A stretch of 19,024 bases of DNA, taken from contig JBBSWJ010000028.1 of NCBI GenBank assembly GCA_038046345.1, positions 1 through 19,024 on the forward strand, written 5' to 3'. Positions 678-18,642 of the stretch are shown in pieces. This DNA is from Nanobdellota archaeon (GTDB lineage: Archaea; Nanobdellota; Nanobdellia; SCGC-AAA011-G17; JACPNG01). The notes under the pieces are model-generated. The model had not been told where the DNA came from, searched no databases, and worked only from the letters and a program-made list of their open reading frames with translations. The position numbers and the translations under genes were made by a program. Position 1 is the first letter of the stretch, and every line of letters starts with the position of its first letter.

Positions 678-965
678 ATGGAAATTAACAAAGATTTAAT
701 TAAAAATGTTGCCAGAAATGCTAGGCTTGGTATTAATGAAGATGAAGCAGAAGAATTTGTTCCACAGTTTAAGGAAGTTCTTGAATTATTCAAAAAGCTT
801 GAAGTTGTAGATACAGATAACATTGAGCCTAGTTTTCATCCAGTTGTTATAAAAAATGTTTTAAGAGAAGATACGGAAGAAAAATGTCTTTCTCAAGATG
901 ATGCCTTAAAAAATTCAGTGCATAAAAAAGAAGGATTTTTTGTTGGGCCTAAGGTGAGTTTATGA
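678..965 (+). CDS. gatC: Asp-tRNA(Asn)/Glu-tRNA(Gln) amidotransferase subunit C
   Basis: NVARNARLGINEDE...LREDTEEKCLSQDDALKNS..KKEGFFVGPKV is typical GatC; ATGA overlap with gatA. Start placed at ATG 678 (MEINKDLIK) rather than 627 because of the promoter position and the usual GatC length. Confidence 0.92.
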   Translation: MEINKDLIKNVARNARLGINEDEAEEFVPQFKEVLELFKKLEVVDTDNIEPSFHPVVIKNVLREDTEEKCLSQDDALKNSVHKKEGFFVGPKVSL

Positions 966-2308: not shown

Positions 2309-2999
2309 CACTTAAATGTTGTTCTTCTACTTTTTTATAACCTTTATTTATTACGTGCCTGCATATATCCTCGCAGTTTTTGAGTAATCTTCTTGGGTTT
2401 CTTTCAGATTTTTCAAATATTTTTTTTATTATGTCATCTGACAGCAAAGATATACCTCCAATACGTTTTCGTATAATCTTTACAGCATCCTCTTCGCTTA
2501 ATTCGTCTAATCTGATTAAATTTTCTCCAACAAGTTCGTCAACACCATTTTTTGCAGATCCGTTTAAGCTGCTTCCAACTAGGACTATACTTTTAATATG
2601 TTTTTTGTAAAGTTTTTTTAGTTCATTTGCATCGCTTTCAGTTATGTCTTGTGCTTCATCCAATAATAATATAAGATTGGTTCCTTTTATTCCAAGTACC
2701 TTTCCTAAGGCTCCCCATCTTCCTCCAATTAATGAATTAAAATTAATGTCTTTTTCGCTTCGGTTGCATGAATAATAAATCAACTTTCTTCCACCGCCGA
2801 ACTCGCGGATTATTCTTTTTAGTATGGTTGTTTTCCCTTTTCCGTATTCTCCTTCTATGAAGAAGACCTGTCCTGCATTTATTTTGCTGAATATCTCTCT
2901 AAGGTTATAACCATATAACTCCTCATGAAATGCTAGTGGTTTTATGCTGAAAGGGTTTGTAAAAAATCCTAATTCTTTATACCAAGGTTTTGTTGCCAT
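2292..2999 (-). CDS. Small ExeA/GspA-like AAA+ ATPase, paralog 1
   Basis: N-terminal WYKELGFFTNPF (ExeA-like F..NPF), Walker A GEYGKGKT, Walker B LILLLDEAQ, sensor-II-like NPRRLL. Confidence 0.8.
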   Translation of the reverse strand: MATKPWYKELGFFTNPFSIKPLAFHEELYGYNLREIFSKINAGQVFFIEGEYGKGKTTILKRIIREFGGGRKLIYYSCNRSEKDINFNSLIGGRWGALGKVLGIKGTNLILLLDEAQDITESDANELKKLYKKHIKSIVLVGSSLNGSAKNGVDELVGENLIRLDELSEEDAVKIIRKRIGGISLLSDDIIKKIFEKSERNPRRLLKNCEDICRHVINKGYKKVEEQHLSVIYQN

Positions 3000-3000
3000 T

Positions 3001-3795
3001 TTAGTAATACTTCTCTGCTGGGTCCTCGTCTATTATTTCTTCACCTAATTGCATTACGTCGCTTTCAGTAAACACTTCTTTTGTATTTTCAATTTTTACT
3101 CCTGATTGGGGTAGTATTGAGTCCACCATTTCGATTGTTACTGATTTGCCTTTGTTTTCAACAGCTCTTTTTGCTAGTTCTTCTGCATTTTGCAAGAACA
3201 TTTTAACATTTTGTGATCTTTTAAACAATTCTTGTGCTACCTCTTGTGAAAACATATTATCACTTTTAATTCTATCTTTTAGTATCATGTATGCTTGTTG
3301 TTTGCTAACTTCAGGTATTTTAATTACTTTCTTTAATCTGTCCACTAGTGAGTCAGAGAAGTGTACAGTGTTCATGTTCTCTCCTGTGAATATCACTGAC
3401 TTTATGTAGTCTTGATCATAGAAGTACTTTAGTCTTTCTGTATTTTTTTTATCAAGCTCACTTGTGTTGTCCATTAAAAGAATCATTCTCCTTGGTTTTT
3501 CTCCAATAAGCTTTGCAATAAAGCCTTTGCGTTTTTCAATAATTTTCTCAATGTTTAGTGCTTTTATCTTTTCGCAGTCTAGGTATAGTACTTTTCCGTG
3601 GCCTCTGAATTGTTTTATTGCTTTTTTTAACAGGGCTGTTTTTCCGCTGCCATTTTCTCCTTCAACAAATATAAGATTACCTGCGTCAATGTTATATAGA
3701 ATCTCATTAACTGTGCTTTCATATCCAATAAGGTTTGTTTCTTCAGTATCCTTAAATGGATTATCGTCAAAGTCTAGTTGTTCAAACCACTGCAT
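3001..3795 (-). CDS. Small ExeA/GspA-like AAA+ ATPase, paralog 2 (degenerate Walker B)
   Basis: WFEQLDFDDNPF, Walker A GENGSGKT, Walker B MILLMDNT (no catalytic Glu), SLVDRL, acidic C-terminal tail; collinear with paralog 1. Confidence 0.8.
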   Translation of the reverse strand: MQWFEQLDFDDNPFKDTEETNLIGYESTVNEILYNIDAGNLIFVEGENGSGKTALLKKAIKQFRGHGKVLYLDCEKIKALNIEKIIEKRKGFIAKLIGEKPRRMILLMDNTSELDKKNTERLKYFYDQDYIKSVIFTGENMNTVHFSDSLVDRLKKVIKIPEVSKQQAYMILKDRIKSDNMFSQEVAQELFKRSQNVKMFLQNAEELAKRAVENKGKSVTIEMVDSILPQSGVKIENTKEVFTESDVMQLGEEIIDEDPAEKYY

Positions 3796-4012
3796 TATTC
3801 ATCGCCTCTGCTTTTTTCCTGTAAGTTATCGCTTCTTCTGCGTATTCTCCCGCAATTTCTGAATCTCCAAGCTCATGATATTTTACGGATTGCTTATGTG
3901 CTCTCTCTGCTTTTTTGTAATATTTTTTTTCTGATGTTCTTGCAAATATTGAGATTATAATAATAATTACCAGAAGAGCTATAGCACCTCCGATTATTGT
4001 TGTACTTTCCAT
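3782..4012 (-). CDS. Small single-pass membrane protein (76 aa), unknown function
   Basis: Hydrophobic N-terminus IIGGAIALLVIIIIISIFA followed by a charged helical region; has its own TATA box; overlaps the downstream ATPase start by 14 nt. Confidence 0.75.
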   Translation of the reverse strand: MESTTIIGGAIALLVIIIIISIFARTSEKKYYKKAERAHKQSVKYHELGDSEIAGEYAEEAITYRKKAEAMNNAVV

Positions 4013-4032
4013 GCCTTTTATGATTTTTGCTC

Positions 4033-4047
4033 TTTTATAAAATTTGC
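4033..4047 (-). promoter_or_regulatory. TATA promoter of the membrane protein/ATPase operon
   Basis: Minus strand reads GCAAATTTTATAAAA, with the TATA box about 23 nt upstream of the ATG at 4012. Confidence 0.5.
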
Positions 4048-4103
4048 TTTTTTGGAAAGTATATGTTTGTGTTAAGAATTTCCGGTAAAATGCTTATTAT
4101 TAT

Positions 4104-4976
4104 CTATGTTGTAACATTCTTTAATGCGTATAATGCGACTTCTAATTGTTTATCATCTGGTTCTCCGGTTGTAATCTTTTGTAATAATAACCCTGGTGTT
4201 ATCAAGATTTTTATGAACCAATTTGGGTTTTGTGCCTTTCTTATAACTTCATATGATACTCCCAGGATTAATGGTAGGAATAATAAATGTGTAGCTAACC
4301 TGATCAATAAGTTAGTATATCCTAACAGTAATCCAACGCTCGTATCTATGATAGCAAAGCCGATTATCGCTATTATTAAGGCTACTAACAAAAAACTTGT
4401 TCCGCATCTGTTATGGATTCTTGAATATTTTTTTGCTGAGTCTACGCATGGACTTAATTCATTTTCATAACAGTTCACTATTTTGTGTTCTGCTCCATGA
4501 TACCTAAACAATATTTTTACGTCCTTCCAGTATGATATTGCATAAATGTACAATATGAATAAGCCAATCCGTATTGCTCCTGCTAGTAAGTTAAATGATC
4601 CTGCGTTTTTTTCTAAATTAAAAAAATTTGTTGTTGCCCATAATGGTAAAAACATGAATATACCAACTGCTATTATTATTGCAAGTAATGTTGGTATTAT
4701 TAACGAAGTGCTATTATTCTTGTTTTTTTTATCAGTGCCTTTCATTGCTATATCTGCGGACCAGCTTAATATCTTTGTACCAATAACTACTGTTTCTATT
4801 AAGATAATTGTGCCCCTTATTATTGGTAGTTTTAGTAATTTATGTTTCTCTGTTACTGACTTAAAATTTTGGGTTTTTACTAAGATTCCATCACGTGTTC
4901 TTACAGCAGTTGCTATTCTGTTCTTATTCTTGATCATTACACCTTCAATTACTGCTTGTCCGCCGATCATTTCCAT
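4104..4976 (-). CDS. DUF1385 family membrane protein (putative metal-dependent enzyme, YqhQ-like)
   Basis: N-terminal IGGQAVIEGVM, YHGAEHK and HNRCGTSF motifs, several transmembrane segments, C-terminal LQKITTGEPDDKQLEVA. Confidence 0.9.
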   Translation of the reverse strand: MEMIGGQAVIEGVMIKNKNRIATAVRTRDGILVKTQNFKSVTEKHKLLKLPIIRGTIILIETVVIGTKILSWSADIAMKGTDKKNKNNSTSLIIPTLLAIIIAVGIFMFLPLWATTNFFNLEKNAGSFNLLAGAIRIGLFILYIYAISYWKDVKILFRYHGAEHKIVNCYENELSPCVDSAKKYSRIHNRCGTSFLLVALIIAIIGFAIIDTSVGLLLGYTNLLIRLATHLLFLPLILGVSYEVIRKAQNPNWFIKILITPGLLLQKITTGEPDDKQLEVALYALKNVTT

Positions 4977-4999
4977 TTGATCTTTTTTAGAATGTTAGG

Positions 5000-5012
5000 T
5001 TTAAAAAATTTG
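5000..5012 (-). promoter_or_regulatory. TATA promoter of the DUF1385 gene
   Basis: Minus strand reads CAAATTTTTTAAA, ending 23 nt before the ATG at 4976. Confidence 0.45.
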
Positions 5013-5124
5013 TTATAGTTGTGGCTTTGCCTTGGGACAAAATTAAGTAATTTTATCTCGCAGCCCTGTATTCCAAAAGATTTATATATAAGTCCATATA
5101 GAGTATAATATAAAAACATATAAA

Positions 5125-5382
5125 ATGAGTCAAATAATACACTATCCAAGTTTGAAAACAATGTTAATGGTAGAGAAGGTCTTGAAAACGGCAGATGTTA
5201 TGATTAGCCGTGAAGAGCTAAAAAGAAGATTGCCAAACAAAATAATGCATCAAACTCTCAATCTAATCTTGGAATATATGGAGGGCAGAGGTTTAATCAT
5301 AGACAGTCATAAAGGAATACTCTGGATTTACAACCCAAGTCCAAAACTAAAAAGAGCAATTGAGAACGGGAGAGAGTTATAA
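5125..5382 (+). CDS. Small winged-helix DNA-binding protein, putative antitoxin
   Basis: 85 aa; ISREELKRRLP...HQTLNLILEYMEGRGLI..SHKGILW has HTH-plus-wing form; TAATG stop/start overlap with the RelE-like gene; GATTTATATA upstream. Confidence 0.7.
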   Translation: MSQIIHYPSLKTMLMVEKVLKTADVMISREELKRRLPNKIMHQTLNLILEYMEGRGLIIDSHKGILWIYNPSPKLKRAIENGREL

Positions 5383-5756
5383 TGTTTGAAAACAAAGAGA
5401 TAAAAGTTGTTCTCTCCGAAGAGGCAGACTAGGTTTTTCAAGAACTGAATAGAATAGTTGGAGAAGAAAAAATGAAAGGAATTGAAAGTTCTTTTCATCA
5501 AACTCTTTTAAGATCAATTGAAAGGGTGATAGATTTACTAAAGAAGAATCCGTTTGCAGGTGATCAAGTTCCTAGAAGGCAATTGCCTGATAAGTATGCC
5601 AAAAAATATGATGCTGAGAATATTTGGAGAATTGAATTGGCTAATCGTTGGAGATTGGTTTACACAATTACAGGAAATAAACTAGAAGTCATAAATTTTG
5701 TGATGGATATTTTTGATCATAAGGATTACGATAAAGTTTTCGGATACAAACACTAG
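5382..5756 (+). pseudogene. RelE/ParE-superfamily-like toxin with an in-frame TAG at codon 17 (5430-5432)
   Basis: ATG 5382 is coupled to the upstream stop and reads MFENKEIKVVLSEEAD*VFQELNRIVGEEK, continuing in frame into track ORF 5472..5756 (LKKNPFAG...WRIELANRWRLVYTI...IFDHKDY). The N-terminal strand-helix typical of RelE folds lies before the TAG. Confidence 0.65.
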
Positions 5757-5920
5757 ACAATATGGGTTACAAACAAAAATTTGCGCCGAAAGGAAATAAT
5801 GTAATTCATGGAGCTGGACAAGTTAGATGTTGCACTTACGGTGATAAATAATTTGTACAAAAAACTAGCTCTACAAGAGATGCCCCATACAATAACACAA
5901 ATCATGATTAATTTACATCT

Positions 5921-5934
5921 AGAAAACTATAAAA
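5921..5934 (+). promoter_or_regulatory. BRE+TATA promoter of gatB (leaderless)
   Basis: AGAAAACTATAAAA ends 22 nt before ATG 5957. Confidence 0.65.
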
Positions 5935-5956
5935 GTACAACCATTACTGTCCTGTT

Positions 5957-7345
5957 ATGGTATTGATAGGTTTAGAAGTTCATGCTACAATTAACAAATT
6001 AAACACAAAACTTTTTTGTTCGTGTTCACTTCCAAGACAAGATTCCCCGCCTAATACCCATACTTGCCCGATATGTCTTGGTCATCCTGGCAGTAAACCA
6101 GTATTAAACAAAAGGGCATTCTTTTTATCATTAAAATTAGCTCTGGCTTTAAAATGTAAAATTTACAACAAACTTGTCTTTTCAAGGAAAACTTATTTTT
6201 ATCCTGACTTGCCAAAAAATTATCAGATAACTCAGTACGAACAGCCATTAGGTAATGATGGATACATCACTCTTGATTCTGGCAAGAAAATTAGTATTCA
6301 AAGAGTGCATATTGAAGAGGATCCAGGAGCTTTGGTTCATCCGGCTGGTATTTCTAGCTCTAATTATGTGCTTATAGATTACAATCGTTCTGGTATTCCT
6401 TTATGTGAGATAGTTACTAAACCAGAAATATCTTCTCCTGATGAGGCTAGAGAATTTCTTAAAAAACTTCAGACTATCATAGATTATCTTGATGTATTTG
6501 ATCCAGCGTCCGGTGTTATAAAAGCAGATGCTAATGTTTCTATTGATGGTGGTGAACGAATTGAAGTGAAGAACATAACTGGCTTTAAGGAGATTGAGCG
6601 TGCAATTGTCTATGAGATTAAGCGCCAGGAGTCATTATCAACACCACCAAAGAGAAAAGAAACTTGGGGGTGGGATACTGATAGGGGTATTACTTATTTT
6701 CAGCGTGTTAAAGAGGGTGAAGATGATTATGGGTATATTATTGATCCTGATCTTGTTCCAATTGATATTTCTTCTGAGCTTATAAGATCTTCAGAATCAG
6801 AACTTCCTGAGCTTCCAGAGTCTTTGGTTAAGCGGTGGGTTTCTGATCTGAATATTGATTCTTCTGATGCCAAGATCATTGCTAATAATCCTCAATTAGC
6901 TAAAATATTTAATGAAGTTTCTAAAAAAGTTGATCCTGTTCTTGCTGCTAGGTGGATTCGTAGAGAATTATCCAGGGTGCTTAATTACGCTAAAAAAGAG
7001 TTGTCTGATACTAAAATTACTTCCACTCATTTAATTGAGTTGTTATCATTTCTTGAAGAAAAACAGATTACTGATCAGAATGCTCAAAAGATTCTTGAAA
7101 TGTTAGTTGAAAAGCCTTTTTCTGTTAAACAGCATATTAATGAGCACGAACTAAAAGTTATTTCTGGATCTGCAATGCTTAGTAATTTATGCAATGAAGC
7201 TATCAATGAATTTCCTAATGCTGTTAAAGATTTTCGTGATGGCAAAGGAGAGGCTCTTAATTTCTTGGTTGGGCAGGTTATAAAAAAAACTAAGGGGCAA
7301 GCAAAGCCAGATAGTGTTAAAGAGATTATGAACAGTCTACTTTGA
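5957..7345 (+). CDS. gatB: Amidotransferase subunit B
   Basis: IGLEVH, KLFCSC, CPICLGHPG, RKTYFYPDLPKNYQITQY, HIEEDPG, DYNRSGIPLCEIVT, EVKNI, C-terminal YqeY-like NFLVGQVIKKTKGQAKP. Confidence 0.97.
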   Translation: MVLIGLEVHATINKLNTKLFCSCSLPRQDSPPNTHTCPICLGHPGSKPVLNKRAFFLSLKLALALKCKIYNKLVFSRKTYFYPDLPKNYQITQYEQPLGNDGYITLDSGKKISIQRVHIEEDPGALVHPAGISSSNYVLIDYNRSGIPLCEIVTKPEISSPDEAREFLKKLQTIIDYLDVFDPASGVIKADANVSIDGGERIEVKNITGFKEIERAIVYEIKRQESLSTPPKRKETWGWDTDRGITYFQRVKEGEDDYGYIIDPDLVPIDISSELIRSSESELPELPESLVKRWVSDLNIDSSDAKIIANNPQLAKIFNEVSKKVDPVLAARWIRRELSRVLNYAKKELSDTKITSTHLIELLSFLEEKQITDQNAQKILEMLVEKPFSVKQHINEHELKVISGSAMLSNLCNEAINEFPNAVKDFRDGKGEALNFLVGQVIKKTKGQAKPDSVKEIMNSLL

Positions 7346-7367
7346 TTGTTACTTATTGCAATAGATA

Positions 7368-7380
7368 GAAAACCTTATAA
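7368..7380 (+). promoter_or_regulatory. BRE+TATA promoter of pepA (leaderless)
   Basis: GAAAACCTTATAA ends 22 nt before ATG 7403. Confidence 0.65.
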
Positions 7381-7402
7381 TTCCGTTGATTTATTCACTC
7401 GT

Positions 7403-8860
7403 ATGAAGGTAGTAACTTCTAGTAAGGCTGTTGAGTCAGTTGTTGATGAAGCTTTAGTAATCCCTATTTTCGAAGGGGTCAAGCCAAGTAAGGATTTATC
7501 TAAAGATCTACAAAAAGCTTTGCTAAATAAAGATTTTAAGGCTGAACAATATGAAGTTTATCTTTCCTATCATGAAAGCTTCAAATCAAAAAGGGTTATT
7601 TATGTAAGCCTTGGTAAGGAAGAAAGTGTTACGCTAGAAAAGATAAGGCGAGCATACCATCAAGTTCAAAAAAAGTTAAACTCCCTTAAAATAAAATCTT
7701 TCTCGCTGAGTTTGCCAAAAACTAAACTTAAACTGGAAGAAGTAACTGATGCAATTCTTACCTCAATTTTGTTAAGTAATTATAGGTTTGACAAGTATAA
7801 ATCTGATGATAAAGACAAAGGCACAAGATTTTCTCAGATAACTGTTTTAGATGATAATCCTAAGCTGAAAAATGTGATAGATCATGCAGTTATTGTAGCT
7901 AAAGGGGCTAACTTTGTGAGAGACTTAGCCAATGAGAATGCTAGGGATAAAACTTCATTGATCTTGGAGGATATTGCGAGAAAAACTGCGAAGGAGAACA
8001 AGTTAAAAATAACTGTCTTTGATGAAAAAGATCTTAAAAGACTTGGTATGAACTTATTATTAGCAGTTGGTGCTGGGGCTGTTACTCCGCCTCGTTTGAT
8101 TGTTTTAGAATATCATGGTAATCCGTCATCTAAGGATGTTTATTCTTTTGTTGGTAAGGGTATTATTTTTGATTCTGGTGGTTTAAATTTGAAGCCTACT
8201 GGATCTATTGAGGATATGCGTGCTGATATGACCGGGGCAGCAACTGTTCTCGGGCTATTAAGAGTTGCATCTCAGCTGAAGATTAAGGCTAATTTGGTTG
8301 GTGTCATGGCAGTATGTGAGAATGCTATCTCAAATGGGGCGTATAAACCTGGTGATATTTTTAGGTCTTATAGCGGGAAAACAGTATACATAGGGAATAC
8401 CGATGCTGAAGGCCGCTTAATACTTGCTGATGCTTTGTCTTATTCAATAAAAAAGTACAAGCCAAAATTAACTGTTGACATGGCAACTTTAACTGGGGCG
8501 GCAGTTGTTGCGGTTGGTACAAAGATAAGTGCTATTCTTGGTAACAATGAAAAAGCGATCAATAATATAATCTCCTCTGGTAAGAAGGTAGGAGAAAATT
8601 TTCATGAGTTGCCTTTGTTTGAAGATTATAATGAGCTTATGAAAAATAATTTGGCCGATATAAGTAATATTTCATCTGAGAAATTTGGTCCTGGAACGAT
8701 TACTGCTGCGTTATTCTTGCAGAATTTTGTGGATAATCAACCATGGGTTCATTTAGATATTGCTGGACCAGCATTTATCAGCTCAGAATACCATTACGTA
8801 GGTCCTCAAGCTACGGGAGTTTGTGTTAGAACATTAATTAATTTCTTAGAGAATATTTAA
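7403..8860 (+). CDS. pepA: M17 leucyl aminopeptidase
   Basis: VGKGIIFDSGGLNLKP, DMTGAA, NTDAEGRLILADAL, DMATLTGA, WVHLDIAG. Start moved from TTG 7346 to ATG 7403 because of the promoter position. Confidence 0.96.
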   Translation: MKVVTSSKAVESVVDEALVIPIFEGVKPSKDLSKDLQKALLNKDFKAEQYEVYLSYHESFKSKRVIYVSLGKEESVTLEKIRRAYHQVQKKLNSLKIKSFSLSLPKTKLKLEEVTDAILTSILLSNYRFDKYKSDDKDKGTRFSQITVLDDNPKLKNVIDHAVIVAKGANFVRDLANENARDKTSLILEDIARKTAKENKLKITVFDEKDLKRLGMNLLLAVGAGAVTPPRLIVLEYHGNPSSKDVYSFVGKGIIFDSGGLNLKPTGSIEDMRADMTGAATVLGLLRVASQLKIKANLVGVMAVCENAISNGAYKPGDIFRSYSGKTVYIGNTDAEGRLILADALSYSIKKYKPKLTVDMATLTGAAVVAVGTKISAILGNNEKAINNIISSGKKVGENFHELPLFEDYNELMKNNLADISNISSEKFGPGTITAALFLQNFVDNQPWVHLDIAGPAFISSEYHYVGPQATGVCVRTLINFLENI

Positions 8861-9909
8861 GTAACATATTTTTTCTGTGGTTTTATTAATAGATGGTACA
8901 GTATTTGTATTAGATATTCCACATCGTTAAGGTTACAAATTCCTGCGCAAGAATGTATATTCCTTACAGGCACTGATATTGTTGTAGATGGTATCCCTTC
9001 CCGGGATAACATAATAGATGTTGCGTCGGTTGTTCCATAATCATCAACTTCTAATTGTAGCGGGATACGTTTTTCCTTTGCAATTTCTTGTAACAGCTCG
9101 TTAATTTGCCTGTTACCAATCATATCTGCGTCCTTTATTGTGATATATGGACCAGTACCGATAATACATCTCCCTCTAAGTTCTGAATCTTTTGCAGTAG
9201 TAGCATCTACAGCTATCCCCCAATCAGGTTTAAGATTCCATACAGCTGTTTTTGCTCCATACATTCCTATCTCTTCTTGTACTGTAAACACAAAATAAAT
9301 ACTTTCTTTTGTTTTTATTTGTTTAAGTCTCCTTGCAAGTTCAATGAGCGCGTAGCATCCAACCCGATCATCTATTGCTTTTCCGCTGATTATTTTTTCG
9401 CTGCCAAGTTGATGTACGGATTGTATTGGTATCATATAATTTCCTATTTTTACCCCCTTCCTTTTGAGTGTTGTACCATCAACTCCTGCATCAACATAAA
9501 GATCTTCTAATTTTGGCAGTTCAGTTATGTCTAGTGCATCATGGAATTGCGGGAATGATATCATCCCCTTGCATATTTCCTTGTTCTTGTCGTTGAGTAT
9601 TACAACTGGTTGTCCTATCAGGCTTATTGTGTCTAAACTTCCGACTGTTGATATCCTTAAGAATCCATTTGTTTCTATCTTTTTAACCATCAAACCTATT
9701 TCATCCATGTGCGCTGCAAGCATTATTCTTGTTCCGCTTCCTTTTTTTAGGCATATAAGATTTCCAAATTTGTCTGCGTATAGCTTATCAACGTATTTTT
9801 TCATTTCTTTTTTAATCATATTACGAACGTTGATCTCATTTCCAGAAGGGCCTAACTCTTTCATAAGTTTAAATAAAAGCTTTGTATTACCAGTGTTACC
9901 TTGTTTCAT
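8857..9909 (-). CDS. M42 (TET-type) aminopeptidase
   Basis: GPSGNE, AAHMDEIG, GKAIDDRVG, TVQEEIGMYGA, AVDAT, GTTDA, RNIHS: full M42 metal-ligand set. Last gene of the minus-strand operon, 21 nt downstream of the OTC stop. Confidence 0.93.
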   Translation of the reverse strand: MKQGNTGNTKLLFKLMKELGPSGNEINVRNMIKKEMKKYVDKLYADKFGNLICLKKGSGTRIMLAAHMDEIGLMVKKIETNGFLRISTVGSLDTISLIGQPVVILNDKNKEICKGMISFPQFHDALDITELPKLEDLYVDAGVDGTTLKRKGVKIGNYMIPIQSVHQLGSEKIISGKAIDDRVGCYALIELARRLKQIKTKESIYFVFTVQEEIGMYGAKTAVWNLKPDWGIAVDATTAKDSELRGRCIIGTGPYITIKDADMIGNRQINELLQEIAKEKRIPLQLEVDDYGTTDATSIMLSREGIPSTTISVPVRNIHSCAGICNLNDVEYLIQILYHLLIKPQKKYVT

Positions 9910-9930: not shown

Positions 9931-10830
9931 TTAATAAGCTTTATGTTTCAGTAGCCATATTAATATTGCTTTTTCTATGTGTAATCTATTCTCAGCTTGA
10001 TCGAGTATAATACTTTGTTTTCCGTCTATTACTTCTGTTGTTACTTCCATACCTCTTATTGCTGGCATGTCATGCATGAATATTGCATTTTTTTTGGCTC
10101 GTTTCATAACATTAGAATTAACTTGGTATTTTTTGAACATTATTTGCCTAATGGTTTTTTTCCATGCCGGAATATTATACGACATCCAGCTGTCTGTATA
10201 AACTACATCTGTTGGTTGTACTTTCTTTGGATTACGAACCCATGTTACATTACTTTTTGTTTTATCAAATAGTTCTTTGAGCGGTTTATTTGGCCCGGCA
10301 AGTATTAGCTTAAAGTTTAACTTTTTTGATGCTAACATCCAGCTGTTTGCTACATTTGTTCTGCAATCTCCATAATATGCAATTGATGCCTTCAATGTGT
10401 TTTTCTTTTCTTTTATTGTTAGTAAATCACCTAATATCTGGCAGGGATGGTACAAGTCTGTAAGACCGTTTATTACAGGTACTTCAGAGTGCCCGGCAAA
10501 TTCTTCTAATTTTTCATGTGAGTAAGTTCTTGCCATTATGATATCTGCCATTCTTGACATTACTTTTGCTGTGTCTGATAAGCTTTCTTTTCCTTTGTGT
10601 AATGGGGAGCTTGTTACATCATAGTAAATAGCATGTCCTCCTAAATGGGTCATACCTATCTCGAAGCTTAGTCTTGTTCTTAATGAAGGTTTTTCAAATA
10701 ACATGATTAATGTTTTTCTGTGAAGTACTTTGTTATACAAGTCTGGATTCTTCTTTATTTTCTGTGCTAAAGTTATTATATTAAATATTTCTTGAGCTTC
10801 TAAGTCATTTAAGTTTAATAAATGTCTCAT
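9931..10830 (-). CDS. arcB: Ornithine carbamoyltransferase (probably catabolic)
   Basis: FEKPSLRTRLSFE (carbamoyl-phosphate site), HPCQILGDL, YTDSWMSY, HDMPA, AENRLH; ATGA overlap with the upstream gene; in an operon with carbamate kinase. Confidence 0.9.
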   Translation of the reverse strand: MRHLLNLNDLEAQEIFNIITLAQKIKKNPDLYNKVLHRKTLIMLFEKPSLRTRLSFEIGMTHLGGHAIYYDVTSSPLHKGKESLSDTAKVMSRMADIIMARTYSHEKLEEFAGHSEVPVINGLTDLYHPCQILGDLLTIKEKKNTLKASIAYYGDCRTNVANSWMLASKKLNFKLILAGPNKPLKELFDKTKSNVTWVRNPKKVQPTDVVYTDSWMSYNIPAWKKTIRQIMFKKYQVNSNVMKRAKKNAIFMHDMPAIRGMEVTTEVIDGKQSIILDQAENRLHIEKAILIWLLKHKAY

Positions 10831-12140
10831 AAGATTCTCTTCAACAGGTTATTTAGTTTTATTTTTCCTGCGTCTTTATACGTATATTCAACAGTTACCC
10901 ATGGCTTGTTTATTTTTAGTATTTTTTGTAAGTTTACTGGAGTTCCATCTATAACTATATCACATTTAACTCTATTGATTGTTTTTTGTAAATCTTTTAT
11001 TTGTTTTTTATTATATCCCATTGCAGGCAATAATTTACCTATTCCGGGGTATTTTGTAAAAGTTTTTTTTATTTCTCCAACTGCTATTTCTCTCGGGTCT
11101 ATAATATGCTTGGCATGGTATTTCTTTGCTGCTAGAGTTCCAGCGCCGTAGGTCATGCCTCCATGTGTAAGTGTTGGTCCATCTTCTACTATGAGCACGT
11201 TTTTATTGCGTATCATGCCTGGATTAGATGGAATTAATTCAAGTGATCCGTATAAAATTTTAGCTTTAGGATTAACTTTCTTAGTATTATCTTCAACAAT
11301 TTTTACATTTTTCTTATCAGCAGTATTATACTTACTTATTATCACTACATCTGCCATTCTTAGGTTTACAGCTCCAGGATAGTACATAAGTTCGTGTCCG
11401 GGTCTGTGAGGATCTGTTAAGACAATGTGTAATCTTGGTTGGTAAAATGGCAAATCATTATTTCCTCCATCCCATATGATCACATCAGCTTCTTTTTCTG
11501 CCATTCTTATTATTTTTTCATAGTCTACTCCGGCATAAATCACAATACCCTGTTCTATCCATGGTTCGTATTCTTCTCTTTCTTCTATTGTACACTTTTG
11601 TTTGTCTAAATCACTGTACTGTGCAAATCTTTGGCATATTTGTTTTTTTAAGTCTCCATATGGCATTGGGTGGCGTATGGCTACAACTTTCTGTCCTTTG
11701 TCATAAAAATATTTTGCAACGGCTCTTGATACTGATGATTTTCCGCATCCTGTTCTTACTGCGCATATTGCAACAACTGGTTTTTTGGAAGTAATCATTG
11801 TGTGGTGTCTGCCCAGCATTCCGTAGTGTGCGCCTGCTGCTAGTACTCTTGATCCTAAATCCATAACTTCTTGGTGTGATAAATCAGAATAGGCGAGGAA
11901 TACAAAATCTATCTTAAGTTTTTTAATTAGTTCCTCTATGTTTTTTTCATCGTAAATCTTTATCCCTGCGGGGTATAATTTTCCTGCCAGTTCTTTTGGG
12001 TATTTTCTTCCTGAAATGTTTGGTATCTGTGCTGCTGTAAAGCAGACTACATTATATGTTGGATTATTTCTAAAATATGTATTAAAATCATGAAAATCTC
12101 TCCCGGCTGCTCCAGCAATGATCACTCTTATTTTATCCAT
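10827..12140 (-). CDS. arcE: COG2403 'predicted GTPase' / cyclic 2,3-diphosphoglycerate synthetase-like family; probable arginine synthetase (ArcE)
   Basis: GAAGRDFHDFN, FTAAQIPNISGRKYP, Walker A AVRTGCGKS, RHPMPYGDL, EEREEYEP, WDGGNND, EDGPTLTHGGM, PAMGY; sandwiched between carbamate kinase and OTC. Start is likely ATG 12140 after GGGGTGA (track uses GTG 12146). Family assignment is confident; the ArcE activity is inferred. Confidence 0.8.
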   Translation of the reverse strand: MDKIRVIIAGAAGRDFHDFNTYFRNNPTYNVVCFTAAQIPNISGRKYPKELAGKLYPAGIKIYDEKNIEELIKKLKIDFVFLAYSDLSHQEVMDLGSRVLAAGAHYGMLGRHHTMITSKKPVVAICAVRTGCGKSSVSRAVAKYFYDKGQKVVAIRHPMPYGDLKKQICQRFAQYSDLDKQKCTIEEREEYEPWIEQGIVIYAGVDYEKIIRMAEKEADVIIWDGGNNDLPFYQPRLHIVLTDPHRPGHELMYYPGAVNLRMADVVIISKYNTADKKNVKIVEDNTKKVNPKAKILYGSLELIPSNPGMIRNKNVLIVEDGPTLTHGGMTYGAGTLAAKKYHAKHIIDPREIAVGEIKKTFTKYPGIGKLLPAMGYNKKQIKDLQKTINRVKCDIVIDGTPVNLQKILKINKPWVTVEYTYKDAGKIKLNNLLKRIL

Positions 12141-12142
12141 CT

Positions 12143-13057
12143 TCACCCCTTTAGTATATGTGTTCCTCCTTTTCCATTTAAAGCTTTCTTCATCGTGTTT
12201 GGATTTGTTATAATAAATTTTTTACCACCATTTTTTAGAAAGTTTATCCCAGCTAATATTTTTGGTTGCATACTGCCAACACCGAATTGTTGTTCTTGTA
12301 TGTAACCCTCTGCTTGCTTTATTGTCATTTTATCAATTCCTTTTTGATTTTGCTTTCGGTAGTTTAGTGCTGCTTGTTGTACATCTGTTAAAACTAATAG
12401 AGTATGTGCTTTGATAGAATTACCAAGAACTTGTGATGCTAGATCCTTGTCAATTACTGCTTCTACTCCTTTGTATCCATTATTTGTTTTTATTACAGGT
12501 ATTCCGCCTCCGCCTGCTGCTATTACAATATCTTGTTTTTTTATTAAATGTTTAATACTGTTAGCTTCAAGTATCTTAATTGGTTTTGGTGATGGAACTA
12601 TTCTTCTGTAGCCTTTACCTTTTTGGAATAGGTATGGAAGTTTCTTTTTTTTAAAAATATTTGGAGAGCTATATGCTGGGCCTATTGGTTTTGTTGGATT
12701 CTTGAAAGCATTATCTTTTTTATCAACTAATACTTGTGTTAGCAATGATACTACATGAGCTTTTGGTGAATTGTTTAGCACACTCTGTTGTATCAGATAG
12801 CCTATTTCACCTTCAGATTCTGCAACGCACACTTCTAATGGTAAGGCATAAGCTTTTCCCAGTGCTTCTTCTGTTCTTATTAAGATGTTCCCAACTTGAA
12901 AGCCATTACCATGTGTTATTATAATATTATACTGTTTGTGTAATGAAACAATTTTTTTGGTGGTATTTTGTATAACTCTTTGTTGGTCTTTAATTGAATA
13001 TTTTCCTTTTTTTACAAGAGCATTTCCTCCTAGTGCTATAACAATTATTTTTTTCAT
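12143..13057 (-). CDS. arcC: Carbamate kinase
   Basis: VIALGGNAL, THGNGFQVG, TQVLVD, NPTKPIGP, RRIVPSPKP, GGGGIPV, GVEAVIDKDLAS, LTDV, GSMQPKI. Confidence 0.95.
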   Translation of the reverse strand: MKKIIVIALGGNALVKKGKYSIKDQQRVIQNTTKKIVSLHKQYNIIITHGNGFQVGNILIRTEEALGKAYALPLEVCVAESEGEIGYLIQQSVLNNSPKAHVVSLLTQVLVDKKDNAFKNPTKPIGPAYSSPNIFKKKKLPYLFQKGKGYRRIVPSPKPIKILEANSIKHLIKKQDIVIAAGGGGIPVIKTNNGYKGVEAVIDKDLASQVLGNSIKAHTLLVLTDVQQAALNYRKQNQKGIDKMTIKQAEGYIQEQQFGVGSMQPKILAGINFLKNGGKKFIITNPNTMKKALNGKGGTHILKG

Positions 13058-13062
13058 ACTGC

Positions 13063-14307
13063 TTATCTTTTTATACGGTTACATATTTTTATTGAGTGTT
13101 CTATAACACTTAAAGCTTCATCTATTTCTTTAGTTGTTACGACATAAGGTGGGATTATCCTAATACTTTTTTCACCTGCGCCCATAAGTACAAGCCCATT
13201 TTTTAGGCATTGTTGTACAAAGTTTTTTCTTACATTACCATCGCTTACATCAAATCCGACCATTAGGCCAAGCCCGCGTACATCATACATTTTATTTTGT
13301 TCACTTATTTCTCTTAATCTTTTTCTTAAGTATTCTCCGTGTTTTAGATTCTTTGATAATAAACCATCTTTTTTTATTGTTCTTATTGTTGCAACACCCA
13401 TTGCCATATCAATTATCTGCCCTCCTCCCCATGTGCTTGATATTGCGCCTGGTTCTGGAAAGTTTTTCTTGTTTGTTATAGCTGCTCCTACACCTAATGC
13501 CTTTGCGCTGCTCATTATGTCTGGTTCAATTCCAAAGTGTTGGAATGCCCACCATCTTCCTGTTCTTCCCATTCCTGCTTGTACTTCATCTGCTATGTAA
13601 GGTATCTTTTTTCTTTGGCATATATTACGCACTTTTATTACCATGTTTTTGTCAGGCACTCTGTATCCCCCTTCGCCCTGTACATGTTCTAATATCACAA
13701 AAGCAATGTCTTCAGGTGTTACTTCTTGTTTGAGTATTCTTTCTAATTTTTCAGATGCTTCTTCGCTAAATGGTAGCCGCTCTGTTGGTATTGTAAAGAA
13801 TCCTTTTTTGTGTATGCTATTAGAGTTTGTTAATGATAAAGCGCCGAGTGTTCTGCCATGAAATGCGCCTTGAAATGATATGCATGTTTTTGCGTGAGGT
13901 CGTAACCTCATTGCTATTTTCATACAGTTTTCTACTGCTTCAGCTCCTGAACTTATTAAGAATGCTGCGTTTAATTTTTTTGGGGTTATGCTTAGTAGCT
14001 CCTCTAACAGACTTACTTGTTCTTCTACAGCAAAATCTGCGCCTGCATATTTTATTGGTGTTCTTTTCTTGTATTTTTTTATAACCTTTAAATGTTCTGG
14101 GTGGTTGTATCCAAGCGGGTTTGATGCGATTTGTGATGCGAAATCTAAAAATGTGTTGCCATCTAAGTCTTTGAAGTAGCAGCCTTTTCCGTTTTTGCTG
14201 TACACGAATGGATATTTTGTGACCCATGCTCCGTTTAATCGTTCTAGTTTTTTTAGTACAACTCTTGAATTAGGTCCAGGTATTTTTGTTTTAATTAGTA
14301 TGCTCAT
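13063..14307 (-). CDS. Class-III PLP aminotransferase (ornithine/4-aminobutyrate omega-aminotransferase-like)
   Basis: DLDGNTFLDF, LGYNHP, SGAEAVEN, GAFHGRTLGALS, EHVQGEGGY, DEVQAGMGRTG, PDIMSSAKAL (PLP Lys), RGLGLM, IRIIPP. Confidence 0.92.
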   Translation of the reverse strand: MSILIKTKIPGPNSRVVLKKLERLNGAWVTKYPFVYSKNGKGCYFKDLDGNTFLDFASQIASNPLGYNHPEHLKVIKKYKKRTPIKYAGADFAVEEQVSLLEELLSITPKKLNAAFLISSGAEAVENCMKIAMRLRPHAKTCISFQGAFHGRTLGALSLTNSNSIHKKGFFTIPTERLPFSEEASEKLERILKQEVTPEDIAFVILEHVQGEGGYRVPDKNMVIKVRNICQRKKIPYIADEVQAGMGRTGRWWAFQHFGIEPDIMSSAKALGVGAAITNKKNFPEPGAISSTWGGGQIIDMAMGVATIRTIKKDGLLSKNLKHGEYLRKRLREISEQNKMYDVRGLGLMVGFDVSDGNVRKNFVQQCLKNGLVLMGAGEKSIRIIPPYVVTTKEIDEALSVIEHSIKICNRIKR

Positions 14308-14408: not shown

Positions 14409-15872
14409 TTATTCAACCTTGTCAATTTGTGCTTTTTGTAATTTTCCTGAGTAATCAATGTATACTGTTTTTATTTCAGAAAATTCTTCAATGCCCATAA
14501 TACCTGCTTCCCTTGTTCCGTTTCCGGTTTGTTTTATTCCTCCGAATGGTAAGTGTACTTCTGCTCCTATTGTTGGGCTGTTTACATAAACAATTCCTGT
14601 TTCTATTTCTTCAATTGCTTTCATTGCGTATACAATACTTTTGGTGTAGATGCTTGAGCTTAATCCATAGTTTGTGTTGTTGATTTTTTTTATTGCTTCT
14701 TGTATATTTTTTATAGTTATTACAGTTAAAAATGGCCCGAATATTTCTTCTTGTGCTATGCGTTTATTTGTATTCTTTACTTCAAATATTGTTGGTGAAT
14801 AAAAATTTCCATTGATTTTAGGAATGAATCCTCCGCATAGTAATTTTCCTTCTTTTTTTCCAATGTCAACATATTTTTGTACTTTTTCTACTGCTTTCTT
14901 GTTTATTAGTGGGCCAACGTCTGTTTTTTTATTTAATCCGTTGCCTAATCGTAGTTTTTTTGTTTTTGTTAATAACTTGTTTAGTAATTTTTTCTTAATT
15001 TTTTTGTGGACTAATAATCTTGATGTAGCAGTGCATCTCTGGCCGCTTGTTCCGAATGCTCCCCATAATATTCCTTCAACTGCATTATTTAGGTCTGCGT
15101 CTTCCATGACTAAGATTGCATTCTTTCCGCCTAATTCCAATCCAACTTTTTTTATTCCCGCGTTTTTTGTTATGTACAATCCTGTGTCTCTGCTTCCTGT
15201 AAATGATATTGCATTTACTTCTTGGTGTTTTATTAGTGCTGCGCCAACGCTCTCTCCCTGTCCAGTTACTATGTTCACTACTCCGTCTGGTATACCCGCT
15301 TCTTTGAATATTTCAAGCATTGAGTACACTGCTCTAGGTGTATCAGAACTTGGTTTTATTACGCATGTATTTCCGCATATTAATGCTGGGGCTAGTTTCC
15401 ATGATGGTATTGCTATTGGAAAATTCCATGGTGTTATTAATCCAACTACCCCGATTGGTTGTCTTATTGTGTAGCATGATTTATTCCTCATTTCTGATGG
15501 TGTAGTATTTCCAAATAGTCTTCTGCCCTCTCCCGCCATATACTCAAATATGTCTATACCTTCTTGAACGTCTCCTAATGTTTCCTTTAGTACTTTTCCC
15601 ATTTCTTCTGTTATACCTCTTGCAAGTTTTTGTTTTCTTTCTTTCATTATTTCTGCAATTTTTAGTAATATTTGGCCTCTTCTTGGTGCTGGTGTATTTT
15701 TCCATTTAGGTAGTGCTTTTTTTGCTGTGATTATTGCTTTTTCTAAATCTTTTTCATTGCCTAACGGGAATCTAGCTATTGGTTTTAGGGTTGCTGGATT
15801 AAAATCTATAAAGTACTTTTTTGACGATGGTTTTACATTTCTCCCGTTGATTAGAAGTTCATATCTTTTCAT
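14409..15872 (-). CDS. NAD(P)+-dependent aldehyde dehydrogenase (semialdehyde dehydrogenase-like)
   Basis: GEGRRLFG, ITPWNFP, KPSSDTP, FTGS, LELGGKN (catalytic Glu), GQRCTA (catalytic Cys), EEIFGP, YGLSSS, PFGG. Confidence 0.95.
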   Translation of the reverse strand: MKRYELLINGRNVKPSSKKYFIDFNPATLKPIARFPLGNEKDLEKAIITAKKALPKWKNTPAPRRGQILLKIAEIMKERKQKLARGITEEMGKVLKETLGDVQEGIDIFEYMAGEGRRLFGNTTPSEMRNKSCYTIRQPIGVVGLITPWNFPIAIPSWKLAPALICGNTCVIKPSSDTPRAVYSMLEIFKEAGIPDGVVNIVTGQGESVGAALIKHQEVNAISFTGSRDTGLYITKNAGIKKVGLELGGKNAILVMEDADLNNAVEGILWGAFGTSGQRCTATSRLLVHKKIKKKLLNKLLTKTKKLRLGNGLNKKTDVGPLINKKAVEKVQKYVDIGKKEGKLLCGGFIPKINGNFYSPTIFEVKNTNKRIAQEEIFGPFLTVITIKNIQEAIKKINNTNYGLSSSIYTKSIVYAMKAIEEIETGIVYVNSPTIGAEVHLPFGGIKQTGNGTREAGIMGIEEFSEIKTVYIDYSGKLQKAQIDKVE

Positions 15873-15979: not shown

Positions 15980-16053
15980 GGGCTCGTAGCATAACCTGGA
16001 AAGTGCGACCGGCTTCGGACCGGTTGATCGGGGTTCAAATCCTCGCGGGCTCA
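15980..16053 (+). tRNA. tRNA-Arg (anticodon TCG at 16015-16017)
   Basis: Cloverleaf: acceptor GGGCTCG/CGGGCTC, D-stem GCAT/GTGC with GGA (A20, an Arg identity element), anticodon stem ACCGG/CCGGT with loop CTTCGGA, T-arm CGGGG-TTCAAAT-CCTCG, discriminator A. No intron and no encoded CCA; AAAACATTTTAAG promoter upstream. Confidence 0.95.
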
Positions 16054-16059: not shown

Positions 16060-16530
16060 TTATTTATGTCTACTATTCAAATCGTGTCTTACGCGTTTTT
16101 CTAGCTCTTCATCATCAAATAAGCGCATTGCATGATCTGTTATAACATGTACCATGTTGAATAACCCTGCATCATTATAGCGGTTGTTGATCGTTTTGTT
16201 GTTTACAAATACTCTTCCGTCTCTTAGAACGAGTACTCTGTGGTCGCTTGTTGAGCAGTGTTTAACAATTGTACCTTCGTTTGTTAAAACAGACGTATCG
16301 GTATAGACTAATGGTGATATCCAACATGGACATGGGTCACTCAGCATGGGATCACCCGCGCGACATAAGCGAAATACGTTGTGATAATCAGATATTTTTG
16401 TTGCGTTATCCGACACGTATCTGTTTGCTGGGATATAGCTTATGTATGACTGTGAATCTGATGCTTTGCATTCTATTAAAACATTGAATGCATGATCAAT
16501 TTGGGGTTCTTGTGCTGCTTCACTTGCCAT
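16060..16530 (-). CDS. Hypothetical protein, paralog of 16564..17058
   Basis: 156-aa ORF sharing H.FN..IE, H....LRDGR.F.......RY and LF.DE.LE..VR blocks with its neighbour; has its own promoter copy. Confidence 0.75.
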   Translation of the reverse strand: MASEAAQEPQIDHAFNVLIECKASDSQSYISYIPANRYVSDNATKISDYHNVFRLCRAGDPMLSDPCPCWISPLVYTDTSVLTNEGTIVKHCSTSDHRVLVLRDGRVFVNNKTINNRYNDAGLFNMVHVITDHAMRLFDDEELEKRVRHDLNSRHK

Positions 16531-16533
16531 TTA

Positions 16534-16566
16534 TGTCTTCCATTTTGGTTGTGGTTTGTAAGCTTA
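16534..16566 (-). repeat. 33-bp direct repeat copy 1 (promoter of 16060..16530)
   Basis: tgtcttccattttggttgtggtttgtaagctta; 30/33 identical to 17060..17092. Confidence 0.9.
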
Positions 16567-17058
16567 TTTTGATTGTTCTAAAGCTTTTCTTACTAGTTCT
16601 TCCAAACGTTCATCTTCAAACAAGAATTTTGCGTAACGTAATATGTATGGTAATGCTCCTAAATATCTTCCAAAAGTAGATTTGTAGCGTTCATCAGTTA
16701 TTTCGTCTCTTATAAATAATCTACCATCGCGTAGAGCCATTAAGTTATGTGTAGTTATAGCAGCTTGTCTAATAATCTTACCATCTTTAACTACAACCCC
16801 TTTTAGGTGGCCTAATTGGCCTACATTGTGTATCTGTTCTTTATCCCATGTGGCTCTTATTATGCCTGAGTTAGCTACTTTAGGATCATACATTCCATAC
16901 AATACCAACTTCTCGTGTTGATCATATAAGCCTGTTACTCCAGCATGTACATCCAAATGTGTTAGCATGTAGTAGCATTCACCACATGATCTTGGAGGAT
17001 GACCTTCTATCACCGCGTTGAACACATGAACTCTTTGTTCTTCTACTTCATTTACCAT
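16564..17058 (-). CDS. Hypothetical protein, paralog of 16060..16530
   Basis: 164-aa ORF with the same shared blocks; its stop codon lies inside the promoter repeat of the downstream paralog. Confidence 0.75.
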   Translation of the reverse strand: MVNEVEEQRVHVFNAVIEGHPPRSCGECYYMLTHLDVHAGVTGLYDQHEKLVLYGMYDPKVANSGIIRATWDKEQIHNVGQLGHLKGVVVKDGKIIRQAAITTHNLMALRDGRLFIRDEITDERYKSTFGRYLGALPYILRYAKFLFEDERLEELVRKALEQSK

Positions 17059-18192: not shown

Positions 18193-18642
18193 ATGATTGG
18201 CTCAACTGCCAAAAAAATAATATCACGGGGTATTCCTTTCGCATTATGGTTATCCTTGCTTTCAGGGTCATTAGTTTCATTAACTGCTGCTTCTAATTTT
18301 TTTAAACATCACAATGTAGGCTATCAAATGTGGGATGGTGCGAAAGTTTTTAAAAAAATAGATGGACCTTTTGATCATACTGAGCTGATTATCCACCCGG
18401 ATGGAGCAGTTGAAGTAACCAGGATTGATTGCCCATATAGACATTACGAAGATAGTAATGGAGATGAAAATGTTGATATGGTCTGTCATGATAATTCTGG
18501 GTGTACGCCTTTTGGAATATTGGAGTTTCATCTGAGGTTATACAGAGATGAACATTTGGAACAATACCCTCAAGTATTTCAGGAAGCTGACTTAGAGTTT
18601 AGAAAACAAATAGAGAGATTTAAACCATTAATAAGTAAATAA
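18193..18642 (+). CDS. Hypothetical secreted or membrane-anchored protein
   Basis: Basic N-terminus plus hydrophobic GIPFALWLSLLSGSLVSLTAA, then a soluble domain containing DSNGDENVD. Confidence 0.7.
   Translation: MIGSTAKKIISRGIPFALWLSLLSGSLVSLTAASNFFKHHNVGYQMWDGAKVFKKIDGPFDHTELIIHPDGAVEVTRIDCPYRHYEDSNGDENVDMVCHDNSGCTPFGILEFHLRLYRDEHLEQYPQVFQEADLEFRKQIERFKPLISK

Follow-up and report, generated by a model that had tools for sequence, protein, structure and literature searches.

The arginine synthetase pathway, published in 2024 by Michimori, Yokooji and Atomi in PNAS (PMC11032458), operates in Thermococcus kodakarensis, where the arginine synthetase ArcE (TK2200; Arg + ADP + Pi <-> Cit + ATP + NH3) has ornithine carbamoyltransferase (OTC; ArcB, TK0871) and carbamate kinase (ArcC) as partners and no arginine deiminase (ADI) is present; the first-pass annotation of the locus described here had stated this correctly. 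ArcE was discovered through its presence with arcC where arcA is missing, and its reaction is nearly reversible, with K about 10 (PMC11032458). It has been characterised from a hyperthermophile, with assays run at 80 C. The ornithine formed in T. kodakarensis is passed to an ornithine aminotransferase (TK2101/PH1423) of the archaeal type to which the aminotransferase found here may also belong. The ADI pathway (ArcABC), including the copy acquired by epibiotic Saccharibacteria (PMC8764695), also makes ATP from arginine by OTC and carbamate kinase, and in Saccharibacteria it likewise serves ultrasmall cells that depend on a host as a compact module for energy (PMC8764695). However, it starts with the hydrolytic ArcA, whereas the locus described here would start with the ATP-forming ArcE in a genome where no PF02274 gene was found, and would therefore yield two ATP rather than one. 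The arginine synthetase pathway is thus already known; the literature that we searched does not mention it in a DPANN setting.

The locus lies in a DNA stretch of 19,024 nucleotides (the window), on which a first-pass annotation had described a coupled operon of three genes, namely, arcC, a COG2403 gene and OTC. All three lie on the minus strand and are translationally coupled as described, but the cluster is longer than had been proposed, since an aldehyde dehydrogenase (ALDH), an ornithine-type aminotransferase and an M42 peptidase also belong to it. This extension to six genes is new here. The features are as follows.

14409..15872, minus strand: ALDH, 487 aa, first gene of the cluster (PF00171, 569 bits)
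13063..14307, minus strand: class-III aminotransferase, 414 aa (PF00202, 307 bits)
12143..13057, minus strand: carbamate kinase ArcC, 304 aa (NF009007)
12143..12149, minus strand: Shine-Dalgarno-like GGGGTGA containing the arcC stop (read from the sequence)
10827..12140, minus strand: predicted ArcE-type arginine synthetase (COG2403 P-loop protein), 437 aa (homology to Thermococcus orthologues)
10827..10830, minus strand: ATGA, arcE stop overlapping the OTC start (read from the sequence)
9931..10830, minus strand: OTC (ArcB), 299 aa (PRK00779, TIGR00658)
8857..9909, minus strand: M42 aminopeptidase, 350 aa, last gene of the cluster (PF05343, 277 bits)
7346..8860, plus strand: M17 leucyl aminopeptidase (PF00883, 372 bits; NF002083, 492 bits against a cut-off of 468)

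The arcC stop codon TGA (12145-12143) is embedded in the GGGGTGA, which matches the host 16S rRNA 3' end, GGATCACCTCCT, by complementarity and lies 2 nt ahead of the arcE start codon ATG; if the alternative GTG start at 12146 were used, arcE and arcC would overlap by GTGA. The aminotransferase gene ends 5 nt before arcC, the ALDH gene lies a further 101 nt upstream in the same direction, and 21 nt separate OTC from the start of the M42 aminopeptidase gene. A promoter and terminator scan with bacterial-type models, which are not applicable to archaea, gave nothing above shuffled sequences.

The host is a Woesearchaeota-like DPANN archaeon of symbiont type with a small genome, in line with the probable DPANN origin suggested earlier. 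Its draft genome (35 contigs) measures 0.82 Mb, is 97% complete and has a "mesophilic-looking" GC content of 34%; its SSU rRNA scores 1342 bits on the archaeal model vs 1043 bits on the bacterial one, and the ArcE of a relative from the same family is identical to a protein that NCBI labels Candidatus Woesearchaeota. Some genes on the contig (GatCAB, DUF1385 and M17) look bacterial. A bacterial (CPR) contig or mis-binning was considered because of them, and is countered by the SSU rRNA, by a uniform GC content (32-36% across the nine genes computed) and by the presence of the same operon in related archaea. Compared with T. kodakarensis, the same three enzymes are encoded, but in one tightly coupled operon joined to an ALDH and peptidases, in a DPANN genome in which no pyrimidine synthesis was found.

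The middle protein of the core (12140-10827) has no match in Pfam or NCBIfam. Nevertheless, it aligns with Thermococcus orthologues at 59% identity and 77% positives without a gap over 432 residues (552 bits), where the reference (P0130) represents a 201-member cluster at 90% identity spanning Thermococcus and Palaeococcus, and where we infer the link to TK2200, which is not among the 15 cluster members listed, via near-identical Thermococcales orthologues. The motifs RTGxGKS (the P-loop), RHPMPYG, WDGGNND and EDGPTLTHG are invariant in an alignment of 31 sequences that includes the window protein, and every family-invariant residue is present in it. The top 150 matches in a search of representatives were all ArcE-like. 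The FastTree tree is unrooted, has weak deep branches and places long-branch representatives unreliably. The gene is single-copy in the host genome. In public sources, members of this family, including the Thermococcus orthologues, are labelled 'cyclic 2,3-diphosphoglycerate synthase' or 'predicted GTPase', just as the first-pass annotation had anticipated. Besides these names, the fold might seem to favour a cyclic 2,3-diphosphoglycerate synthetase (cDPGS) or a GTPase, as the nearest solved structure to the AlphaFold model (pLDDT 92) is the Methanothermus fervidus cDPGS (8ORU/8ORK; 8oru, Foldseek E 1.4e-17), which has the same three-part P-loop architecture, followed by LpxK, in agreement with the LpxK-type fold neighbours reported for ArcE (PMC11032458). 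However, the fold match has only 15% identity, the sequence match to solved cDPGS chains is local (21 bits, E 1.2e-3, about 115 residues), and the M. fervidus enzyme acts on another substrate to make a thermoprotective solute and is not a functional match. Since the same label also sits on Thermococcales orthologues of the proven arginine synthetase, and the gene context is one of arginine catabolism, we give this reading a negligible probability. The protein is therefore best supported as a predicted ArcE-type arginine synthetase; with its homology to ArcE, its coupled arcC and OTC partners and the lack of a PF02274 match in the genome, it would fill the deiminase slot, as had been suggested.

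The two partners are recognized by their own models. ArcC, which is single-copy in the genome, scores 327 bits on NF009007 (cut-off 266) and 339.9 bits on TIGR00746, slightly under its cut-off of 358.25. The OTC, the sole transcarbamylase of the genome, exceeds the cut-offs of both PRK00779 (345.7 bits vs 306) and TIGR00658 (306.4 vs 280.85), and its best solved relative is the Pyrococcus furiosus OTC. Canonical OTCs carry the substrate motifs STRTR, HPxQ, DxxxSMG and HCLP. In the window OTC, HPxQ is kept as HPCQ, STRTR reads SLRTR, which is also present in some bacterial OTCs, SMG is replaced by SYN, which is common to other OTCs from DPANN operons, and HCLP is replaced by HDMP, which is restricted to the subclade of the window OTC (HDLP in locus L143). 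The ornithine-contacting Cys of HCLP is thus an Asp in the window OTC, which sets it apart from the T. kodakarensis system; together with SYN, this counts against the arginine reading of the operon. One could accordingly consider another guanidino substrate such as agmatine, from which the ArcE-like enzyme would form carbamoylputrescine and ATP, while the transcarbamylase would be a putrescine carbamoyltransferase (PTCase) and the aminotransferase and ALDH would convert putrescine to GABA. The altered ornithine-site motifs (SYN and HDMP) fit this idea, as do the 261 bits that the protein scores with the model for putrescine carbamoyltransferase and the fact that a class-III aminotransferase and an ALDH are also the putrescine-to-GABA pair, with aminobutyraldehyde dehydrogenase models scoring about 395 bits on the window ALDH. 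However, those 261 bits are far under the model's cut-off of 500 in a protein that passes two OTC cut-offs, the best solved relatives are true OTCs (236 bits vs 167 for PTCase), HCLP is retained in this operon by most of the DPANN relatives, and the genome has a separate agmatinase. Moreover, the predicted ArcE shares 59% identity with orthologues specific for arginine, and none of its invariant residues is lost. We therefore regard a guanidino substrate other than arginine as quite improbable.

We surveyed 401 high-quality genomes of the phylum and found arcE in 38, arcC in 26 and ADI-family genes in eight. Hence about one in ten sampled genomes harbors arcE, and about two thirds of these also harbor arcC. 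Among the 26 arcC carriers, 25 have arcE and the remaining one has an ADI gene, while none has both. The arcC-arcE-OTC core was found in about 24 of the 43 phylum loci in the synteny survey, and an ALDH and an aminotransferase lie nearby in 14 of the 43, in differing gene orders; the M42 peptidase is a recurrent neighbor of the module in relatives. The six-gene cluster thus recurs with shuffled order in related DPANN genomes, which is also a new observation.

Searches of the whole genome bear on what the operon does. As these absences come from single-family profile searches of a draft genome, they apply to the families named. No ADI (PF02274) was detected in the window, as had been noted before, or in the genome, with controls responding, and profile searches found neither argG nor argH. 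A weak match to argH (18 bits) reflects the generic lyase fold and is not argH, and an arginase-family match, considered as another arginine route, is the agmatinase (TIGR01230, 201 bits vs a cut-off of 174) and provides no such route. Carbamoyl-phosphate synthetase had no match, and aspartate carbamoyltransferase is missing as well, the single match of TIGR00670 being the OTC itself; there is therefore no pyrimidine sink for carbamoyl phosphate. Because ADI, argG, argH, carbamoyl-phosphate synthetase and aspartate carbamoyltransferase are all missing, the catabolic, ATP-yielding direction is likely. The genome has almost no other ATP-making route among the enzymes searched: ATP synthase (PF00006), phosphoglycerate kinase, pyruvate kinase, acetate kinase and pyruvate:ferredoxin oxidoreductase (POR_N) gave no match, and the one further candidate is a lone ACD-beta-like protein. 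A search of the genome for APC-type amino-acid permeases found none, which counts against the breakdown reading; the ATP/ADP translocase profile (PF03219) gave no response in the control genomes.

Since the ArcE reaction is nearly reversible, we infer the direction from this genomic context. Run in reverse, carbamate kinase would act as a carbamoyl-phosphate synthetase, OTC would make citrulline and ArcE would make arginine, replacing ArgG and ArgH, neither of which was found in the genome. Given a supply of citrulline, ArcE indeed sustains the synthesis of arginine in vivo, and such a role has been proposed for some bacteria lacking ArgG and ArgH (PMC11032458). However, no route to ornithine was detected, as the genome has no second amino-acid kinase and no class-III aminotransferase paralogue; the conserved neighbors are an essentially irreversible ALDH and peptidases; and arcC tracks arcE almost perfectly in the phylum, as ATP recovery predicts. 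A cell without most of the ATP sources searched is also unlikely to spend two ATP on an amino acid available from peptides, so that we consider arginine biosynthesis unlikely. Still less probable, in our view, is that the pathway chiefly feeds carbamoyl phosphate or ornithine to anabolism. In T. kodakarensis, disruption of arcE or arcB causes pyrimidine auxotrophy and that of arcC has little effect (PMC13260591), and the host genome here lacks a detectable carbamoyl-phosphate synthetase. Nevertheless, given a host without pyrimidine synthesis, the supply role seen in Thermococcus is not applicable: no aspartate carbamoyltransferase is there to use the carbamoyl phosphate, arcC is part of the same coupled operon and is inherited together with arcE, and the ornithine is apparently consumed by the adjacent aminotransferase. 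We thus hold with good confidence that the operon encodes the arginine synthetase pathway run in the breakdown direction, which is also the direction that its catabolic neighbors, the ALDH and the peptidases, favor.

In the proposed breakdown pathway, the M42 peptidase, together with the adjoining M17 peptidase, would free arginine from peptides. ArcE would convert arginine, ADP and phosphate into citrulline, ATP and ammonia, OTC would use phosphate to split citrulline, yielding ornithine and carbamoyl phosphate, and carbamate kinase would transfer the phosphate of the latter to ADP, giving 2 ATP, 2 NH3 and 1 CO2 per arginine. The class-III aminotransferase would then turn ornithine into glutamate-5-semialdehyde, which the ALDH would oxidize to glutamate, and 2-oxoglutarate could be regenerated by a GDH-like enzyme whose gene lies outside the cluster. 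The best solved relative of the aminotransferase is 7vno from Pyrococcus horikoshii (E 1.6e-62, against 1.4e-55 for acetylornithine aminotransferases), which we take to be PH1423. PH1423 is listed as an ornithine delta-aminotransferase (PMC9986279). Although the window aminotransferase reaches no NCBIfam equivalog cut-off, its orthologues occur in eight of 12 arcE-positive relatives vs one of 28 arcE-negative ones, and we propose that it is an ornithine delta/omega-aminotransferase. The ALDH likewise reaches no equivalog cut-off; the solved structure that it matches best, 6fku, is that of a generic ALDH, and P5C dehydrogenases are not among its top matches. However, its orthologues co-occur with arcE and adjoin arcE/OTC in related genomes, and glutamate-5-semialdehyde is the substrate proposed from this context. 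The arrangement resembles the RocD/RocA-type route, in which a class-III aminotransferase also stands beside an NAD(P)-dependent ALDH after an ornithine-producing step, but differs from it in that the window ALDH does not clearly belong to the P5C dehydrogenases as a subfamily and is assigned by context.

The source of ATP in DPANN archaea with sub-megabase genomes is still debated, since 'no complete energy pathway' is where many reconstructions stop. Once the mislabelled 'GTPase / cDPG synthase' is read as ArcE, an orphan carbamate kinase becomes part of a full two-ATP substrate-level route, which public annotation still hides, even in Thermococcus. We tentatively suggest, as a combined reading that we consider possible although the balance is somewhat against it, that in this branch of Woesearchaeota-like DPANN archaea, whose genomes would lack ATP synthase and the ATP-forming glycolytic steps, this peptide-to-arginine-to-glutamate module built around ArcE may be the principal, perhaps the sole, endogenous ATP source, that its genes form a cohesive, shuffled set, and that a second arcE lineage, which is solitary and belongs to larger DPANN genomes lacking arcC, may have another role, possibly arginine synthesis. 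If true, this would account for the earlier reconstructions in which such genomes had arcC but 'no full energetic pathway'. Reading the gene as ArcE also predicts that the cell depends on its host or surroundings for peptides or arginine, a need that could inform enrichment or co-culture attempts. The M17 gene, which is convergent with the M42 gene and linked to the module by position, is a possible extra source of free amino acids.

The minus strand of the window carries six head-to-tail genes from 15872 to 8857:

15872-14409, minus strand, aldehyde dehydrogenase (ALDH)
14307-13063, minus strand, class-III aminotransferase (AT)
13057-12143, minus strand, carbamate kinase (arcC)
12140-10827, minus strand, arcE, encoding 437 aa that match nothing in Pfam or NCBIfam
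10830-9931, minus strand, ornithine carbamoyltransferase (OTC)
9909-8857, minus strand, M42 aminopeptidase

The junctions described in the first-pass annotation proved exact when the sequence was re-read: the arcC stop TGA lies within GGGGTGA, which pairs with the 3' end of the genome's own 16S rRNA (GGATCACCTCCT), the arcE ATG follows two bases on, and the arcE stop overlaps the OTC start in ATGA. arcC begins 5 nt after the end of the AT gene and the M42 gene 21 nt after OTC; the ALDH gene is set off by 101 nt, with its own GGTGATC motif and a TTTTATAT element upstream. The host genome consists of 35 contigs, of which the window is C28 (821 kb in all, 34% GC, completeness rated 97%), and its SSU rRNA scores 1342 bits with the archaeal Rfam model versus 1043 with the bacterial one.

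TK2200 of Thermococcus kodakarensis, which belongs to the same family as the window protein, is an arginine synthetase, as the first-pass annotation stated; its homologues occur throughout the Thermococcales, cyclic 2,3-diphosphoglycerate synthetase (cDPGS) being merely a distant relative (Michimori et al., PMC11032458). The window ArcE aligns with P0130, the representative of a 90%-identity cluster spanning Thermococcus and Palaeococcus, at 59% identity over 432 residues with zero gaps. Every column that is invariant among 31 aligned sequences is kept in it, among them those of the RTGxGKS P-loop and of RHPMPYG, WDGGNND and EDGPTLTHG. In a sequence search of solved structures, cDPGS was reached at 21 bits only. 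Judged by sequence similarity, ~550 versus 21 bits answers the question of ArcE or cDPGS placement, the same question as a rooted tree would address, and the middle gene is assigned to the ArcE type, as proposed, and not to cDPGS. Homologues at ~60% identity number in the thousands in public databases and, those of Thermococcus, Pyrococcus and Palaeococcus included, bear the names 'predicted GTPase' or 'cyclic 2,3-diphosphoglycerate synthase', the very mislabelling that had been predicted. An NCBI protein with the label Candidatus Woesearchaeota has exactly the sequence of the ArcE from another genome of the window's own family (G003).

Whole-genome family searches, to which control genomes responded, found no arginine deiminase (ADI), argininosuccinate synthetase or carbamoyl-phosphate synthetase, and the sole argH match was a generic one of 18 bits, so that the genome-wide check for arcA, argG and argH was otherwise empty. 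The arginase-fold protein of this genome is an agmatinase. No aspartate carbamoyltransferase was found and the cluster OTC is the only transcarbamylase of the genome; therefore, carbamoyl phosphate has no visible anabolic consumer. Since, in addition, no ornithine-making route was found in the genome and the neighbouring genes are catabolic, the evidence favours an operon running toward breakdown, in which arcC, arcE and OTC would convert Arg + 2 ADP + 2 Pi to Orn + 2 ATP + 2 NH3 + CO2. The proposal that ArcE fills the deiminase slot beside OTC and carbamate kinase is thus supported by homology, genomic absences and catabolic neighbours.

The ornithine might be carried on to glutamate. The best solved relative of the AT is the P. 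horikoshii protein 7VNO, which we take to be PH1423; both PH1423 and the orthologous TK2101 of Thermococcus are ornithine delta/omega-aminotransferases. The cluster dehydrogenase is a generic class-1/2-like ALDH, which, from genomic context alone, would oxidise glutamate-5-semialdehyde. arcE is present in 12 of 40 related genomes from the same taxonomic order; AT orthologues occur in 8/12 arcE-positive versus 1/28 arcE-negative relatives and ALDH orthologues in 10/12 versus 3/28, these being related genomes and not independent samples. On the metagenome contig nearest to the arcE clade of the window (L143, ena:ERZ27253369:k141_566471), a CBS-domain protein precedes arcE; beside arcE/OTC, upstream and in divergent orientation, are genes for a glutamate dehydrogenase (GDH; ELFV family) and a POR-family protein (PF01558), a gene set linking arginine breakdown to glutamate oxidation. 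A GDH-like dehydrogenase is also present in the window genome by family search.

Single-family searches of the draft genome did not find ATP synthase alpha/beta, phosphoglycerate kinase, pyruvate kinase, acetate kinase or the POR or POR/KOR N-domain. There is a lone ACD-beta-like ATP-grasp_5 protein of 223 aa (G000:C31:9648-10319, contig C31 of this genome; L111:1462-2133), with no ACD alpha subunit adjoining its gene. The arcE operon is thus the only complete ATP-yielding pathway among the routes covered by these single-family searches of a draft genome, which is a lead rather than proof. For a different Woesearchaeotal MAG, a preprint of 2020 recorded arcC yet 'no full energetic pathway'. 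The arginine synthetase pathway is already published and the window operon is another example of it; what is particular here is that the host is a DPANN archaeon, that six genes form a peptide-to-glutamate module, and that the searches turned up almost no other ATP route. The literature searched yielded no paper linking arginine synthetase with DPANN.

The proposed survey of DPANN synteny recovered the arcC-arcE-OTC core in ~24 of 43 loci fetched from the phylum, with ALDH and AT within a few kilobases in 14 and M42 a frequent member. The order ALDH-AT-arcC-arcE-OTC is found in the window and two other loci (L119 and L142), and arcC-arcE-OTC-ALDH-AT-M42 in most others; that order varies while clustering persists points to selection for clustering. 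At least three own-family loci carry an M32 (Taq-type) carboxypeptidase between arcC and arcE (L097:9300-10784, L100:2614-4101, L102:6517-8001), a gene absent from the window genome by tblastn. Of 80 loci around ArcE homologues, most of them bacterial, only roughly a tenth had arcC or OTC within 4 kb.

Among 401 high-quality, evenly drawn genomes of the phylum, 38 have arcE, 26 arcC and 8 ADI-family genes; 25 of the 26 genomes with arcC also have arcE, the remaining genome has ADI and none has both (without the unpublished genome G358: 37, 25 and 24/25). In 12 of the 13 arcE genomes that lack arcC, arcE is solitary. A quick FastTree places the window ArcE in a DPANN-dominated 29-sequence clade with operon-type genes (local support 95); most solitary DPANN copies branch outside it, one with a Patescibacteria protein. 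Solitary loci without arcC (L114, L116, L120-L125, L127, L128, L138) come from larger genomes of 1.1-1.7 Mb (G059, G294, G323, G421, G363, G372, G311, G264, G422, G371, G340), and these copies possibly serve arginine synthesis.

The window OTC passes the OTC family cut-offs and has an SLRTR motif; like all aligned DPANN operon OTCs, it has SY[N/H/K/R/Q] for the usual SMG. Its HDMP, where Asp replaces the ornithine-contacting Cys of HCLP, is matched by HDLP in L143:4137-5060, HCLP being kept in all other aligned OTCs; therefore, the Cys-to-Asp change is a conserved trait of a small subclade and not an error. These odd motifs could mean that the module acts on a shifted substrate, an explanation to which we give low weight because ArcE is so strongly conserved and most relatives keep HCLP.

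A tRNA-Arg(TCG) gene (15980-16053, plus strand; aragorn) lies immediately upstream of the first gene of the arginine operon and is divergent from it, which may be coincidence. Three small ORFs of 156, 164 and 149 aa (16060-17058, minus strand, and 18193-18642, plus strand) had no Pfam and no significant NCBIfam match; two lie just 5' of the operon, past the tRNA gene. gatCAB is split within 627-7345 into gatC-gatA (627-2308) and gatB (5957-7345), between which lie:

2292-2999 and 3001-3795, minus strand, a paralogous pair of AAA/STAND-like ATPase genes
4104-4976, a DUF1385 gene
5125-5382 and 5472-5756, a small winged-helix and YoeB/ParE-like pair
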